DNA of 38,300 nt, from UHGV virus genome UHGV-0186551; one strand, given 5' to 3'. The notes beneath the pieces were generated by a model that was not told the origin of the DNA, searched no databases, and was given only the letters and a program-made list of their open reading frames with translations. Positions 1-6,492 of this stretch are shown here, piece by piece (within the stretch, counting starts at the first letter, position 1; the number at the start of each line of letters is the position of its first letter). The stretch comes from a virus. Made by a program: the position numbers and the translations under genes.

Positions 1-14
1 TAGTATAAAAAAGC
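1..14. repeat. att core (attR copy), tagtataaaaaagc; window begins inside the core
   Basis: Identical to 37207..37220; is the reverse complement of the lambda core GCTTTTTTATACTAA (first base presumably just left of position 1). Confidence 0.85.
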
Positions 15-160
15 TGAACGTGAAACACTAAAAACCATTAATATCAATGCATTACAATAAATTTAGCTTAAAAAATAGACTATATAATACTGCAAAACGC
101 AACATATGCAGTCACTATGAATCAACTACTTAGATAGTATTAGTGACCTGTAACAGAGCA
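15..160. other. attR P-arm (Int arm-site/IHF/Xis binding region, phage side of attR)
   Basis: Sequence following the core recalls the lambda attP P-arm in reverse complement (recollection, not aligned); individual protein sites not mapped. Confidence 0.55.
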
Positions 161-201
161 TTAGCGCAAGGTGATTTTTGTCTTCTTGCGCTAATTTTTT
201 G
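161..201 (+). terminator. sib/tI-like hairpin with T-run (int retroregulation element in the free phage)
   Basis: ttagcgcaag ... cttgcgctaa inverted repeat followed by tttttt. Confidence 0.5.
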
Positions 202-290
202 TCAACATACTGGGTTATCTGAATTTACAGCCATGCTCAGTATCTCGATAAGCGCAGAGAAATGATGCAGTGGTGGGCGGACTGGCTTGA

Positions 291-314
291 TGAAAAGGTG
301 GAGTGAACCACCTT
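291..314 (-). terminator. Possible terminator hairpin downstream of the 218-aa gene
   Basis: aaggtgg/ccacctt stem with adjacent A-run on + (U-run on - transcript). Confidence 0.3.
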
Positions 315-422
315 AACCACTATCGAAGAGCACAAAACCTTGCAATCAAGTGCAAAGCTTTGTGTGTTATTTTTTATGGCTATATAAATTATATACTGCC
401 AGTGCTATCTAACATTTAAATA

Positions 423-1079
423 TTATGAACTATAATAAGTCCTAATCTTTACAGATGAAAGCATAATCTTCCAAGCTTGATCGCTACCCAACCACTCATC
501 GTTGGTTGGTTCATTATCACCAGATACTACATAAGTATCTGGCATATCAAAGTCTATATTGCAAAGGTCTTCTCCTTTGCGCTCCTTAAAAATAAGAAGA
601 TCTATTTTTGTTGTTGGGAATTTTTTATCCAAAACACTTCTCAGTTTATACACAGCATCTCGTTCTGCATTCAATCTAACGAGTAAAACACGTTCCGACT
701 CATTGATTTTCTCTATAAATCTTTTTCTTCTCGCCTTTATTTTTTTCATCATATTAAACAAGCAGACTTCAATACCTTGTTTTTCATAGTCATCAATAAG
801 AATATCGTGAATACTTCGAAATCCAGTCGCTGTATCTGTGATATCAATACAATTTTTAAATCTGCCATTAATTTTTATATTTTCAGGCAAGAAAAGGTGG
901 TCGCACCCCTTATTAATTATTTTTGTAACTTGAGGTAGTTTTTGAGAGGCAAACCAATCAAATGGTCCACTAAATGTCCTCAACCCAAATCGCTTTAACC
1001 TTCCTGCTGGTTGACATTTTTTACCAAGGCTTGCTATAAAATCATACTCTCCACAAGGAAGAAAAAGGCCTTTATTCAT
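423..1079 (-). CDS. Hypothetical protein, 218 aa; N-terminal motif SLGxxC...PFDW reminiscent of DUF1796 (putative papain-like fold); AT-rich accessory gene
   Basis: ORF track 423..1115; start moved to ATG at 1079 (MNKGLF...) which has an AGGAAA ribosome-binding site; AT-rich composition unlike the rest of the prophage. Confidence 0.7.
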   Translation of the reverse strand: MNKGLFLPCGEYDFIASLGKKCQPAGRLKRFGLRTFSGPFDWFASQKLPQVTKIINKGCDHLFLPENIKINGRFKNCIDITDTATGFRSIHDILIDDYEKQGIEVCLFNMMKKIKARRKRFIEKINESERVLLVRLNAERDAVYKLRSVLDKKFPTTKIDLLIFKERKGEDLCNIDFDMPDTYVVSGDNEPTNDEWLGSDQAWKIMLSSVKIRTYYSS

Positions 1080-1196
1080 ATGATTTTCCTTACATTTTAT
1101 GACGACAAAAATCATAACATTGCCTTATTAATCAGTCAAACAGTTAACAAATGCAAACAAACAAGTAAGCACATTGTTGATAATTTGTTTATTTTT

Positions 1197-1811
1197 ATGT
1201 TTTTGTTATCTATACCATTTTTTTCATTTGCTTCTGATACAAACAAAACGCCACCATATCGCATGAGGGAGTCGATGTTTGAGTTATTAAAGGAGCAAAG
1301 GGATATTGTTATGCTTGGCGATAGCATAACCGCGCGAGGAGAGTGGAATGAGCTTCTTCCTAGTTTATCTGTAGCAAATAGGGGCATTGGGGGAGATGAA
1401 GTTAAATTTATGAAAAGAAGGATTGATTCTATATTTTTATTAAAGCCCAAATATGTATTCATTATGGGCGGAACAAATGATTTCAGAAGAAAAAGAAGTG
1501 TTGATGATGTGGTTCGTGACTATAAGCATATAATAAAAAAACTACACAAACACAGAATTAATGTATTCATTCAGTCCACCCTTTACGTGTCAAGAGAAAG
1601 CAGGTTAAATGACAACATAAAAATATTAAAATTAAACAATGCAATAAATAACTATTGCTCTGTATCTAATTATTGTCGTTTCGTAGATCTTAACGTGCAC
1701 ATGGCAAAAGATAGAAAAATACTAGCTAAGTATAGCGATGATGGAGTCCATCTAAATGGTAATGGGTATTTAATGTGGGCGTCAATCATATACCCTTTAA
1801 TTAAAAAATAA
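1197..1811 (+). CDS. SGNH/GDSL-family hydrolase (esterase/lipase-like) with hydrophobic N-terminus, probably exported or membrane-anchored
   Basis: Motifs GDSIT, GIGGD, GGTNDF, DGVHLN in SGNH block order; N-terminal MFLLSIPFFSFA; start uncertain (ATG 1080, TTG 1185 or ATG 1197; track start 1011). Confidence 0.75.
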   Translation: MFLLSIPFFSFASDTNKTPPYRMRESMFELLKEQRDIVMLGDSITARGEWNELLPSLSVANRGIGGDEVKFMKRRIDSIFLLKPKYVFIMGGTNDFRRKRSVDDVVRDYKHIIKKLHKHRINVFIQSTLYVSRESRLNDNIKILKLNNAINNYCSVSNYCRFVDLNVHMAKDRKILAKYSDDGVHLNGNGYLMWASIIYPLIKK

Positions 1812-1817
1812 GAATAG

Positions 1818-1849
1818 TAAAAAACCATCTCATTATGAGGTGGTTTTTT
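1818..1849. terminator. Bidirectional rho-independent terminator between convergent hydrolase and tailspike genes
   Basis: Hairpin aaaaaccatctca / tgaggtggttttttt with A-run before and T-run after. Confidence 0.6.
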
Positions 1850-1930
1850 ATATAGAATAAAGCAATAGAGGTTTATTTTATTTGTTTATCATGGCTTAAT
1901 GCACTAGCACTTTAATTGAAAAAACTATAT

Positions 1931-4330
1931 TTATTTTAGTATCCATCCGGTATTTCCTGTTCCTGTTTTTTTTTGATACCAATCACCATTATAATCAATG
2001 TACATTGACCCCTTAGGTGCGGTCACAACACCCTCAGGTGAACCGGAGCCTCTATAAATTCCAAAGAGAGTTGTACCTCTTACTTTCTCGTATGCAAACA
2101 ACAAACCATCTGAAGCCCTTCTGATACGCAACGGTTCGTGCTCTGAGTCCGATGCAAATGTAGTGGTGCCGTTTGAATCTGTTTCCCTGGAAAAACTTCC
2201 ATCTGTTCTTGTTCCTTCAATGATCGAATTTGGGTAGTTTGGATCATCAGATGAATGTAACCTAATATAGGAACTATTTGATGCTGATACCCCCCTACCC
2301 CTTAAAATCAATCCCTTAAATGATGACGTAAATAGTGCCTGGATTGAGCCATAAACAGTGTTATCACTACCGTTTTGCTGATCGTATATTCTTAGTCTTG
2401 AGCTATTATCATACATAATAGCGTTGAAGTACTCACCAAGACGTTCGCTAAATGCAACAATATTAAAAGCATTGCGCCATCTAAATGATATATTTCGCCC
2501 GCTTTCTCCGGCATCTACACCTGCATTACTTGAAGCATTGGTTATGCCAGAATTAAGGTTCTGCTCATCGTTGTTACCAGTCGCTGGTCGTATAGAGTAA
2601 ATTGTCTTTTTCTCAAGAGAATAGCTACTTCCCCATCCATAATCTGTATCAGGACTCCAGTCTCCAGAATTTGCATCCTTGGTTGTTTCCACCCAATAAG
2701 AGCCATTTGATGGAGGAACACCAATTATTCCAGAAGTCTCAATAGATGATGCAGCCCATCTTCTTCCACGCCAGTTTACAATATTAGCTCCTGCCCTCCA
2801 TGTTTCTATGCAGCTTATAATTATTTCTTCGCCACGAATAGTTAAACCTTCCGGCTCGAATCTGGCTGGATTCCCAAGAGTTGGATGGTTAAGCAACCCA
2901 TCGCGCCCATATTGCGACCTTGCATCATCGATATCTAATTTTCTTAGTAAATTACCTGTTAAATCATATGTAAAGATATGATGCTTTCCAAAAGCATTAG
3001 TGCCTCCCTTAAGTATATGTATATATCTTCCATCAGACGCAATACCTTGTACAGAGTAAGCGCCTTCAGAAGGTGAGTCGCTCATTTCCCAAACAAACAT
3101 GGGGTTTGCTAATGTTTTATCTTCAAGTTTATCAATTGATATTTTATCGTATATAAATACAGTTCGTTTAGCGGCATCACTCTTTGGTGTATTAACCATT
3201 ATTAAAAGACGACCGTCAGAAGAAATGGCAATTCCTGCACGATTGTAATCTTGAAATGGGTGACCGCTACCAGTAATCCCCCATACATTATAACTTTTTA
3301 CGTCAGACTGAGTTGTTCCTGCCCCTCGCCAAGTTATTTTACTAAACCCTTTGCCTGCAGACTCCCCATCTTCACCTGAATTGGTTACACTTGATGTATA
3401 TAAATATACTTGACCATTCTCCACCATGGCAGAAAGATCAAATCCGTGCCCAAGGTTTAATTCTGGAGAATACGCAACATGGTTTACTACCCTTCCATCA
3501 TCATAAAGATTAAACTCAACAATACGAACTCTTTCTTTATCCGACCAGGTTGGCCCAACAGGCCGTTGTGTGACAAATAGTTTTTCAATGCCATTAACAC
3601 GGCAATATGCGATCCCCTGTAACGCATTTCTGGCATTAGGATAAATTTCTGTGTTTGTTTCTCCCTGAAAACCAAAAAAAGGTTCCATCATTTTTCTCTG
3701 CGCAAGTTTGTCAGTTTCAAGTAGACGAGAAACGGAAATAAGAGAGCCATTATCTGCAACAATCCTCCCAATACCTCGAGCAGAAGATACATCAACTTCG
3801 AGAGTATTTACTGCAAAATCGCCATCAGGAACAAACATTCTATAGCCTGCGTTAGAGAATGCCTCAGTAGCGTCAGTTATTCCATCACTGATAGCCCCCC
3901 AACCGCGAACATCTTTGTCATCACGCCATCGTGCAATCTGCAATTCGGGATATTTTTTAGCACCATCCGGGTCTTCTAACTGCTGCCGTAGCTGATCCGG
4001 GTCATACTTCAGCACATTAGGGAAATAGAACTGCTGAGTGCCATATGCATCATATACAGCCATAGAATGGCCTTGAACAGTTACGAATTTGGCAATCTGC
4101 CCGTTATATACCGGATATCCAGCAGCGTTAATGATGATTGGCTGCGAAACAGGAACATGAGAGCCGTCTTCGTTCTCTACATAAACCTGAATCTGGTTTT
4201 CTGGACTTACCGGGTCAGTGTCAATTTTTCCGATATAAATTTTGCCGTTGGCTACTGCTTTAAAAGAACGCGCCATAGTGAAGAGTTGCGAAGGCATACT
4301 CACTACAACATTGGCTGTAATGTCTGTCAT
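1931..4330 (-). CDS. Tailspike, 799 aa: P22-type N-terminal head-binding domain joined to a divergent receptor-binding domain
   Basis: First ~115 aa ([11 protein letters not shown]...[11 protein letters not shown]...LKYDPDQ) match P22 tailspike N-terminus from memory; remainder unrecognised. Confidence 0.9.
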
Positions 4331-4494
4331 TTAATTTTCTCCAGACGTAGCAATGCGGAACAAGATGCAACTTGCCCGGCATTGCATTAATGTAAGTTAT
4401 GATTTGTTAACTATGAGATGAGTCTATGCAAAAAGATCTGTTGAATATTGCGTTCTATATATTTGGTTTTTGCACATTTCTGGTGTTTGCAAAG

Positions 4495-6492
4495 CTATTC
4501 TGACAACGAATCAGACTTAGCCCCCTGCGTCAGAGCGTTAATTGCCTTTTGTGCCTGCTGCATTGCTTTCTCAAAGGCTGTTGATCCGCGTGGGGTGTTT
4601 GCCATTCTGAGCATTGCATTTCTGAATGGTTCGCTCTCATAGGCGCGAGTAAGAAGTCCGTAGCTTACTGCTGCGCCAGTTGTCGCCGGGTTCATTGCCG
4701 TCCCATACCCGATAATGAACGGGATGGTTTGCTGCCCTGTGGGTGTTGTTACTGCCGCTTTTGCTGCCTGCTGAGTGGACTGAAGGTAATTTTTCAATCC
4801 TTTCAGATAAGCAGCATCCTGCCCCTTAAATGTGATGCCAGTCTGGTTTTGCAGGATGTTAAGCTGCCGAAGGAACTGGTCAGGGGATCCGCCAGATTTC
4901 TCCATCGCCTTTCCAATGATGCCATTGCGCATTTGCGCCCTGCCAACACGACCAACTGAGTTATACAGCGTCTTAATTTCCGATTTGTTCTTGCTGAATA
5001 GCATGTTGTTGACAATTTCCGGTGTCAGGTCGCCTTTCATGAGAACATTCTTCAGCCTGGTATTCTTTAGTTTCGCCGCTTCGTCAGCGTAGACGGCATT
5101 GGCCTGCTGATATTTACGGAGAGTATCGTTGCCAAGATTATGACCAATGGCACCATTGATATCGTCGGTCATCGCCTTGTAAACGCGCTGAATGGCAGCA
5201 TCGGAACGGTTTGGTAACACTGGTCGCTCACCCTTCACGTCCATTCTGAACTGACTGCGCAGGTCGCTTAATTGCTTCAAATCCAGATTTACCGGACCAT
5301 CAGGGCCAGCATTGCGAACAAGCTCATCACGATATGACTGAAGTTTTGAAATTGTCTCGTTATCAGCCACCTTACCAAGCTTCTTCAGATTAGATATCTC
5401 AGTATCAATCTGCTGAATTGCTCGCGCAGGCTGGATATTGACTCCCGCCATTGCATTCTGAACCTGCTCAAGACGGTTCCCTGCAGCACGACGAATTCCT
5501 GATGTTTTCGCTTTAAGGCTGTCAATAACAACAGCTGGATCATACTCACCGAATTTATCAGCAAATCTCTGCACCAACTGGCTTCTCGCTTCCTGTTGCG
5601 TTGCTCTCATTCCGCTTGTGCCAGCCAGGGGGATATTTTCTGCTGTCGTTTGCGCCATTTTTCCGACGCGGGAAGTAGGCTGTAACAGGTCTGTGGTGTG
5701 CAGAGGCACTCCTTCACGCTCTGCAAATCTGATAGCTTGCTGCGCTTCTGGCGCAATAGCACCACGAACTCCACGATAAGCAGCACCTAATCCACGTCCG
5801 GCAGCGTTAATAGCACCGCCAGCCAGCACACCAACGCCCAAATCGGTGGCGAGTGCTTCCGCATCATCTTTCGCACTATTTGCAGCAAGTGATCCAACTG
5901 CGTTTTCTGCTAGAAGGCGAGTTGCCCCATGAGCAATTCGACCAGCAAGTGTTGGTGCCTGTGCTGCCGCTCTCTCAACGCCAGCAGGAGTGAGGTAAGG
6001 CAATGCTTCAGCAAATACCCTTCCCTCTGTCGTTTGTGGAGTCAGCGCGCCTTGCTGAAGGCCAAAGTCCTGCTCTAATCCCTGCGTTGTTACACGTGGC
6101 GCTGGTTGATATGTACCATCGCCAATGCCGAGTTTACCGCCAGCCCAAGCCGCCGCGCTTGTTACAGCATCGGCAACTGATGCAGGTATGTTTGCCACGT
6201 TCACGCCAGCCTGCACCAGTCCGCGACCAGTCTCTTTTACTGCTTCGCCAAGATCAGACATAAATCCACTTTGCTGTGGTTGTTGCTGTGCTACTGGTTG
6301 CTGTGTCTCCACTTGCTGCACATATGGCAATGGATAGGAAGCATAGAAAGCTTGCTTAGCCTGCTCTGCATTTTCTCCGGCTTGCGGGGCAACGACTTCA
6401 TTGAAGTATTGCTCCTGAGCCTGCGCTTTTTGTTCTGGTGCTAACGCCTGATACTGTGGAGAGGCGATAACATCTTTCCATGCTTTAGCCAT
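4495..6492 (-). CDS. Ejection/internal virion protein, P22 gp16-like
   Basis: 665-aa ORF in the gp16 position after gp20; Q/A-rich. Confidence 0.8.
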   Translation of the reverse strand: MAKAWKDVIASPQYQALAPEQKAQAQEQYFNEVVAPQAGENAEQAKQAFYASYPLPYVQQVETQQPVAQQQPQQSGFMSDLGEAVKETGRGLVQAGVNVANIPASVADAVTSAAAWAGGKLGIGDGTYQPAPRVTTQGLEQDFGLQQGALTPQTTEGRVFAEALPYLTPAGVERAAAQAPTLAGRIAHGATRLLAENAVGSLAANSAKDDAEALATDLGVGVLAGGAINAAGRGLGAAYRGVRGAIAPEAQQAIRFAEREGVPLHTTDLLQPTSRVGKMAQTTAENIPLAGTSGMRATQQEARSQLVQRFADKFGEYDPAVVIDSLKAKTSGIRRAAGNRLEQVQNAMAGVNIQPARAIQQIDTEISNLKKLGKVADNETISKLQSYRDELVRNAGPDGPVNLDLKQLSDLRSQFRMDVKGERPVLPNRSDAAIQRVYKAMTDDINGAIGHNLGNDTLRKYQQANAVYADEAAKLKNTRLKNVLMKGDLTPEIVNNMLFSKNKSEIKTLYNSVGRVGRAQMRNGIIGKAMEKSGGSPDQFLRQLNILQNQTGITFKGQDAAYLKGLKNYLQSTQQAAKAAVTTPTGQQTIPFIIGYGTAMNPATTGAAVSYGLLTRAYESEPFRNAMLRMANTPRGSTAFEKAMQQAQKAINALTQGAKSDSLSE

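Follow-up and report, generated by a model that had tools for sequence, protein, structure and literature searches.

A coliphage tailspike joining a P22-type head-binding domain to a predicted phi11-type five-bladed propeller, with a teichoic-acid-like capsule as its probable receptor

What does a P22-like coliphage recognise on its host when its tailspike opens with a familiar head-binding domain and continues into something that resembles none of the receptor domains of P22, Sf6 or HK620? The question is raised by an open reading frame of 799 amino acids (start ATG, stop TAA) on the minus strand of a viral genome, UHGV-0186551, of which a stretch of 38,300 nucleotides was analysed ('the window' denotes that whole stretch). 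The product serves a P22-like (Lederbergvirus) prophage of Escherichia coli as its receptor-recognising tailspike. Its gene comes after three DNA-transfer genes in the P22-like order, as checked in the window and in the prophages vB_EcoP-683R2 and Gally (the latter from strain LF82), and positions 1-25000 of the window are 95-97% identical to Lederbergvirus genomes over 59-63% of the queried 25 kb. Over its full length the protein is 99.9% identical to the annotated tailspike of 683R2 and 98.5% identical to that of Gally, and GenBank holds the sequence many times, in a cluster (n=262) named 'phage head-binding domain-containing protein'. Full-length identity to an already characterised tailspike was not found: the near-identical proteins of 683R2 and Gally exist, searched literature yielded no biochemical characterisation of either, and the papers describing the two phages are silent on the tailspike receptor. 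Gally virions are podoviruses and lysogenise LF82 deltaGally (PMC9928086). Scanning window positions 1-4700 for promoters and terminators gave fewer matches than shuffled sequence did. The gene and its parts are as follows.

1931..4330, minus strand: tailspike gene, 799 codons and stop (ORF list, match to annotated tailspikes)
3992..4330, minus strand: P22-type head-binding (tail-hub-binding) domain, residues 1-113 (Pfam PF09008, solved N-domains)
3719..3991, minus strand: helical neck and small alpha/beta adaptor, residues 114-204 (AF2 model, CUS-3 likeness)
2501..3718, minus strand: predicted five-bladed beta-propeller 'platform' with putative glycan pocket, residues 205-610
2123..2500, minus strand: predicted all-beta 'tower'-like domain distal to the propeller, residues 611-736 (AF2, Foldseek)
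1931..2122, minus strand: C-terminal segment, residues 737-799 and stop (pLDDT below 50 in the AF2 monomer)

The anchoring end is straightforward. Pfam Head_binding (PF09008) spans residues 1-113 over the whole of its profile (1-113 of 113; E 1.2e-66, 222 bits against a cutoff of 24), and the solved N-terminal domains of Sf6, P22 and HK620 type align with E values of 1e-44 to 3e-64, though only to about residue 118. Identity to the P22 domain is about 64% over residues 2-116 (measured on chimera chains) and 74% over the core, residues 6-109; for domains of the Sf6, HK620 and HZ41 types it reaches 87-97%, and the gene occupies the genome position that the tailspike gene has in P22, Sf6 and HK620. 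Past residue 118 the only sequence match to solved tailspikes is a short linker, residues 113-175, to 9vvr_A. The receptor domains of P22, Sf6 and HK620 are right-handed parallel beta-helices acting as O-antigen endoglycosidases, unlike the present protein beyond that point: neither the AF2 model nor the fold search contains a beta-helix receptor domain beyond the N-domain, and there is no Pfam match of the pectate-lyase type. The initial annotation had assigned the first 115 or so residues to the P22 head-binding domain and described the remainder as unlike the P22, Sf6 and HK620 receptor domains, and both statements are borne out.

Between anchor and receptor part lies a region that the AF2 model builds from helices (residues 111-144) and strands (149-199). 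Over residues 1-159 the protein shares 90.6% identity with the CUS-3 endosialidase tailspike and 92.5% with the tailspike of 720R6. At the DNA level, likeness to the CUS-3 tailspike gene (87% of nucleotides) ends at window position 3882, near codon 150, and likeness to the HK620 and Sf6 types ends near codons 118-124. Neck and adaptor (residues 114-204) form a second exchangeable module, in common with CUS-3 up to about residue 150-159. The G+C content of the receptor part is 0.39-0.41, against 0.50 in the adjacent structural genes. Protein similarity, DNA breakpoints and the shift in G+C thus all support the chimeric, modular build first proposed for this tailspike.

That the receptor part might have a different fold had been suggested from the start, and structure prediction followed by fold search now gives that fold: a five-bladed beta-propeller platform with a tower, placing a domain hitherto labelled unrecognised with the receptor-binding proteins of phages phi11, 80alpha, P68 and NF5 and with gp12 of GA-1. 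Foldseek alignments to the phi11, 80alpha and P68 proteins cover about 640 columns and, being of that length, include the tower region, modelled as strands at residues 622-725 with pLDDT 80-95. Sequence profiles approach the same family from a greater distance: Pfam Phage_RBD_prop (PF21311) matches residues 293-462 below its gathering score (16.5 against 23.7 bits, E 0.007), and a profile search against solved sequences reached 9m7x, 6iab and 6iac at only E 0.002-0.02. The S74 chaperone domain (PF13884), present at the C-terminus of many homologues, has no match in this tailspike.

The staphylococcal relatives, phi11 (Gp45, 5efv), 80alpha (6v8i), P68 (6iab) and NF5 (9m7x), have propeller and tower in common with the tailspike at an identity of only 11-14%. 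They differ in carrying a bent coiled-coil stem with an iron site, where the tailspike has its P22 head-binding N-terminus, and in belonging to siphovirus baseplates or to Gram-positive podoviruses, whereas the tailspike is carried by a Gram-negative podovirus. The closest named relative is the gene 12 neck appendage of the Bacillus phage GA-1, with 26% identity over residues 209-659 (E 5e-53) and a fold match at Foldseek E 2e-44 and TM 0.51-0.55. Both proteins are appendages of short-tailed phages; the GA-1 one differs in having its own N-terminal anchor and in serving a phage of a Gram-positive host. The end of GA-1 gp12 matches solved chaperone-type C-terminal domains, with the neck appendage protein 3gud among the profile matches, and no report of its function was found in the searched literature. 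Phages phi11, 80alpha, P68 and GA-1 all use this architecture on cell walls that bear teichoic acid.

Several other systems invite comparison. CUS-3 and the phage of the window are both P22-like prophages of extraintestinal E. coli and have the order tailspike, accessory gene(s), integrase in common, although the accessory gene of CUS-3 is neuO and those beside the present tailspike encode an SGNH/GDSL protein and a DUF1796 protein. CUS-3 targets a group 2 capsule (K1) rather than an O-antigen, and so provides a precedent for capsule reading. The receptor region of CUS-3 takes the form of a sialidase-type propeller; it carries Pfam endosialidase domains as well as an S74 chaperone, and of these the window tailspike shows none: PF12217, PF12218, PF12219 and PF12195 gave no match in it and did match other head-binding proteins in the same search. 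Five-bladed propeller enzymes (bacterial glutaminyl cyclase, GH43/GH62/GH32, the C-terminal domain of YjiK) have 5-12% identity and no sequence relationship to the tailspike; their likeness to it is of the generic kind also noted by the phi11 authors. Membership of a glycoside hydrolase family was considered and rejected, with no Pfam or NCBIfam match and a fold likeness that is generic only; the combination of family signature and acidic catalytic triad of the clan GH-F/GH-J propeller glycosidases (GH43, GH62, GH32, GH68) was not found.

Where such a propeller might hold its ligand is suggested by its most conserved residues.

2849..2857, minus strand: Glu492-Pro-Glu494, an E-x-E-G motif found throughout the family, on the last blade's innermost strand
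3446..3448, minus strand: His295, in a conserved H-G motif
3617..3619, minus strand: Gln238, aligned with phi11 cavity residue Gln165
3047..3049, minus strand: Gln428, aligned with phi11 cavity residue Gln330

Across 154 diverse representatives of the family, Glu492 is kept in all 154, Glu494 in 151, His295 in 149, Gln428 in 145 and Gln238 in 137. A joint alignment of 39 sequences, which takes in GA-1 gp12, phi11 Gp45 and two bacterial capsule-locus propeller proteins, retains Gln238, His295, Glu492 and Glu494 in 39/39 and Gln428 in 38/39; the glutamate pair is thus found in GA-1 gp12, in phi11 Gp45 and in the capsule-locus proteins as well. In an hhalign comparison with phi11, of a probability of only 4% (E 0.011), His295-Gly-Phe297 lies opposite His209-Gly-Thr211, and Gln238 and Gln428 lie opposite Gln165 and Gln330; given so weak an alignment, these equivalences rest on agreement of motifs and similarity of fold rather than on superposition. 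The phi11 residues Gln165, Thr211 and Gln330 line a central cavity in which GlcNAc was modelled (PMC4901313), the sugar site itself being a model only, as soaking with GlcNAc failed.

What the pocket may read is indicated by the company that the tailspike keeps. The receptor domain is present in 44 of 5426 complete E. coli genomes. O types were assigned by reading the galF-gnd regions of the lysogens, and overlaps were counted by chimeric BLAST (part of the tailspike gene joined to a serogroup gene): 21 of the 44 are O102, seven O83, five O11 and at least one O2/O50. Capsule loci proved a closer correlate, with an LF82-type kps region 2 (group 2 capsule) in 40 of the 44 lysogens against 61 of the 5426 genomes overall (1.1%). 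Fisher's test on tailspike and LF82-type locus gives p = 6e-81 and an odds ratio of about 2500, values that ignore kinship among genomes that are not independent, many of them being one O102 clone. Three WCHEC lysogens have another TagF-type locus, of CDP-ribitol type, bringing carriers of a TagF-type capsule locus of either kind to 43 of 44; in the lysogen WW2 the LF82-type locus was not detected. Conversely, 21 genomes carry the LF82-type locus without the tailspike. The pattern has a replicate in a second head-binding and propeller tailspike, P0017 (36% identical), which occurs in five genomes, all five with a second glycerol-phosphate kps locus.

By Pfam, the LF82-type locus encodes a TagF-like glycerophosphotransferase, a cytidylyltransferase-like protein, a GT29-like protein and a TPR protein, and from such a combination of TagF-like, TPR and glycosyltransferase genes, capsule polymers of teichoic-acid-like type are predicted (PMC5974469). 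Both LF82 and the probiotic strain A0 34/86 have this locus; as the latter is serotyped O83:K24:H31, K24 becomes a candidate antigen on the strength of that one strain's serotype. No chemical structure for the capsule was found in the searchable literature, and the main text of a 2026 kps typing paper mentions neither K24, LF82 nor the LF82-type locus.

Since the tailspike is almost confined to E. coli with a teichoic-acid-like capsule, it probably recognises the capsule (K-antigen), not the O-antigen, with the polar propeller pocket as the likely binding site; we place the probability of this reading at roughly 0.65. Residues 1-113 anchor the trimer to the tail hub, as the corresponding domains do in P22, Sf6 and HK620. 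Under the proposed scheme, the central polar pocket of each propeller, ringed by Gln238, His295, Gln428 and Glu492/Glu494, would engage a polyol-phosphate/sugar repeat belonging to the teichoic-acid-like group 2 capsule made by the rare TagF-like kps locus, and attachment to the capsule would let the short-tailed virion reach the outer membrane. The initial annotation left specificity between O-antigen and capsule; the genome association favours the second and speaks against the first.

Characterised P22-like tailspikes other than that of CUS-3 target the O-antigen, and one could accordingly suppose that this one does too, its propeller binding or cleaving a single O-polysaccharide, with its link to a capsule locus a by-product of clonal descent. 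The tailspike is indeed enriched in certain O types, occurring in 21 of 107 O102, seven of 36 O83 and five of 66 O11 genomes against about 0.2% of the remainder. Yet receptor domains at least 98% identical recur across four unrelated O-antigen clusters, O102 (with rml), O83 (without rml), O11 and O2/O50, a spread that rules out a single O-antigen target. Within O102, moreover, the tailspike tracks the K locus rather than the O type, most K-locus-negative O102 genomes being without it, and no single O type accounts for more than 21 of the lysogens, where the K locus accounts for 40. An O-antigen-directed tailspike is, on this evidence, very unlikely.

The same variety of O types could arise if the propeller were a broad-range, lectin-type spike for a common sugar, such as GlcNAc or Gal in the LPS core, in ECA or in several O-antigens, so that the spread among lysogens would reflect nothing more specific than a broad host range. 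Support may be drawn from phi11 Gp45, whose target is one sugar decoration, the GlcNAc carried by teichoic acid, and from Klebsiella phages with beta-propeller depolymerase-like proteins, which reportedly infect more capsule types (PMC12491483). Such a spike would not, however, restrict lysogens to a capsule locus found in 1.1% of genomes, and Gally, whose infectivity data concern a variant 98.5% identical to the exact window protein, formed no plaques on K-12 wbbL+, TD2158 or C (PMC9928086). A generalist lectin therefore seems very unlikely, and capsule recognition is again the better account.

Capsule recognition is itself compatible with a further step, in which the propeller is also a capsule depolymerase whose pocket cleaves a phosphodiester or glycosidic bond of the teichoic-acid-like polymer. 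One small set of polar and acidic residues is conserved in phages of Gram-positive hosts, in those of Gram-negative hosts and in bacterial capsule-locus proteins alike, a pattern expected of catalysis or core chemistry and not of specificity residues. Enzymes predominate among the non-phage neighbours in the fold search (glutaminyl cyclase, GH43, GH62, GH32 and, as a calcium nucleotidase, 2h2n), and both TagF-type K loci that were read for gene order, those of LF82/WP3 and WCHEC4533, encode a secreted member of the propeller family, the LF82 protein being LF82_RS15455. The GA-1 module sits in the gene 12 slot, in which phi29 has an appendage, gp12, that degrades teichoic acid; the endosialidase likewise cleaves K1, and capsule-specific podoviruses generally carry depolymerases. 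We regard this extension of the capsule reading as a serious contender with somewhat less than an even chance of being right.

Taken further still, the tailspike might be the founding member of a new enzyme class, a five-bladed-propeller depolymerase of teichoic acids and teichoic-acid-like capsules with a Glu-x-Glu/His/Gln centre, shared by the tail proteins of phi11, P68 and GA-1, by E. coli capsule phages and by the secreted proteins of TagF-type kps loci. Transfer of a single module family between phages of Firmicutes and phages of Enterobacteria would then be explained by the polyol-phosphate polymers that both kinds of host display. This is a tentative proposal, and one that we think rather unlikely in its entirety.

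Modular tailspikes and the phi11-type propeller are each already known. The searchable literature yielded no description of a P22-like coliphage that joins the head-binding domain to such a propeller, nor one that links the phi11-type fold to the teichoic-acid-like capsules found in E. coli. If the capsule link is true, it would name a receptor and at the same time offer a recognition reagent, already to hand, for a rare capsule type, whose carriers include the high-risk O102 lineage, O11 and O2/O50 strains, the Crohn's-associated LF82 and the probiotic A0 34/86. It would also suggest that this propeller family reads polyol-phosphate chemistry across the Gram divide, and the ligand site of the staphylococcal receptor-binding proteins would become testable in an easier system. 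Prophage tailspikes, finally, could serve to predict those K types that have dropped out of serological coverage.

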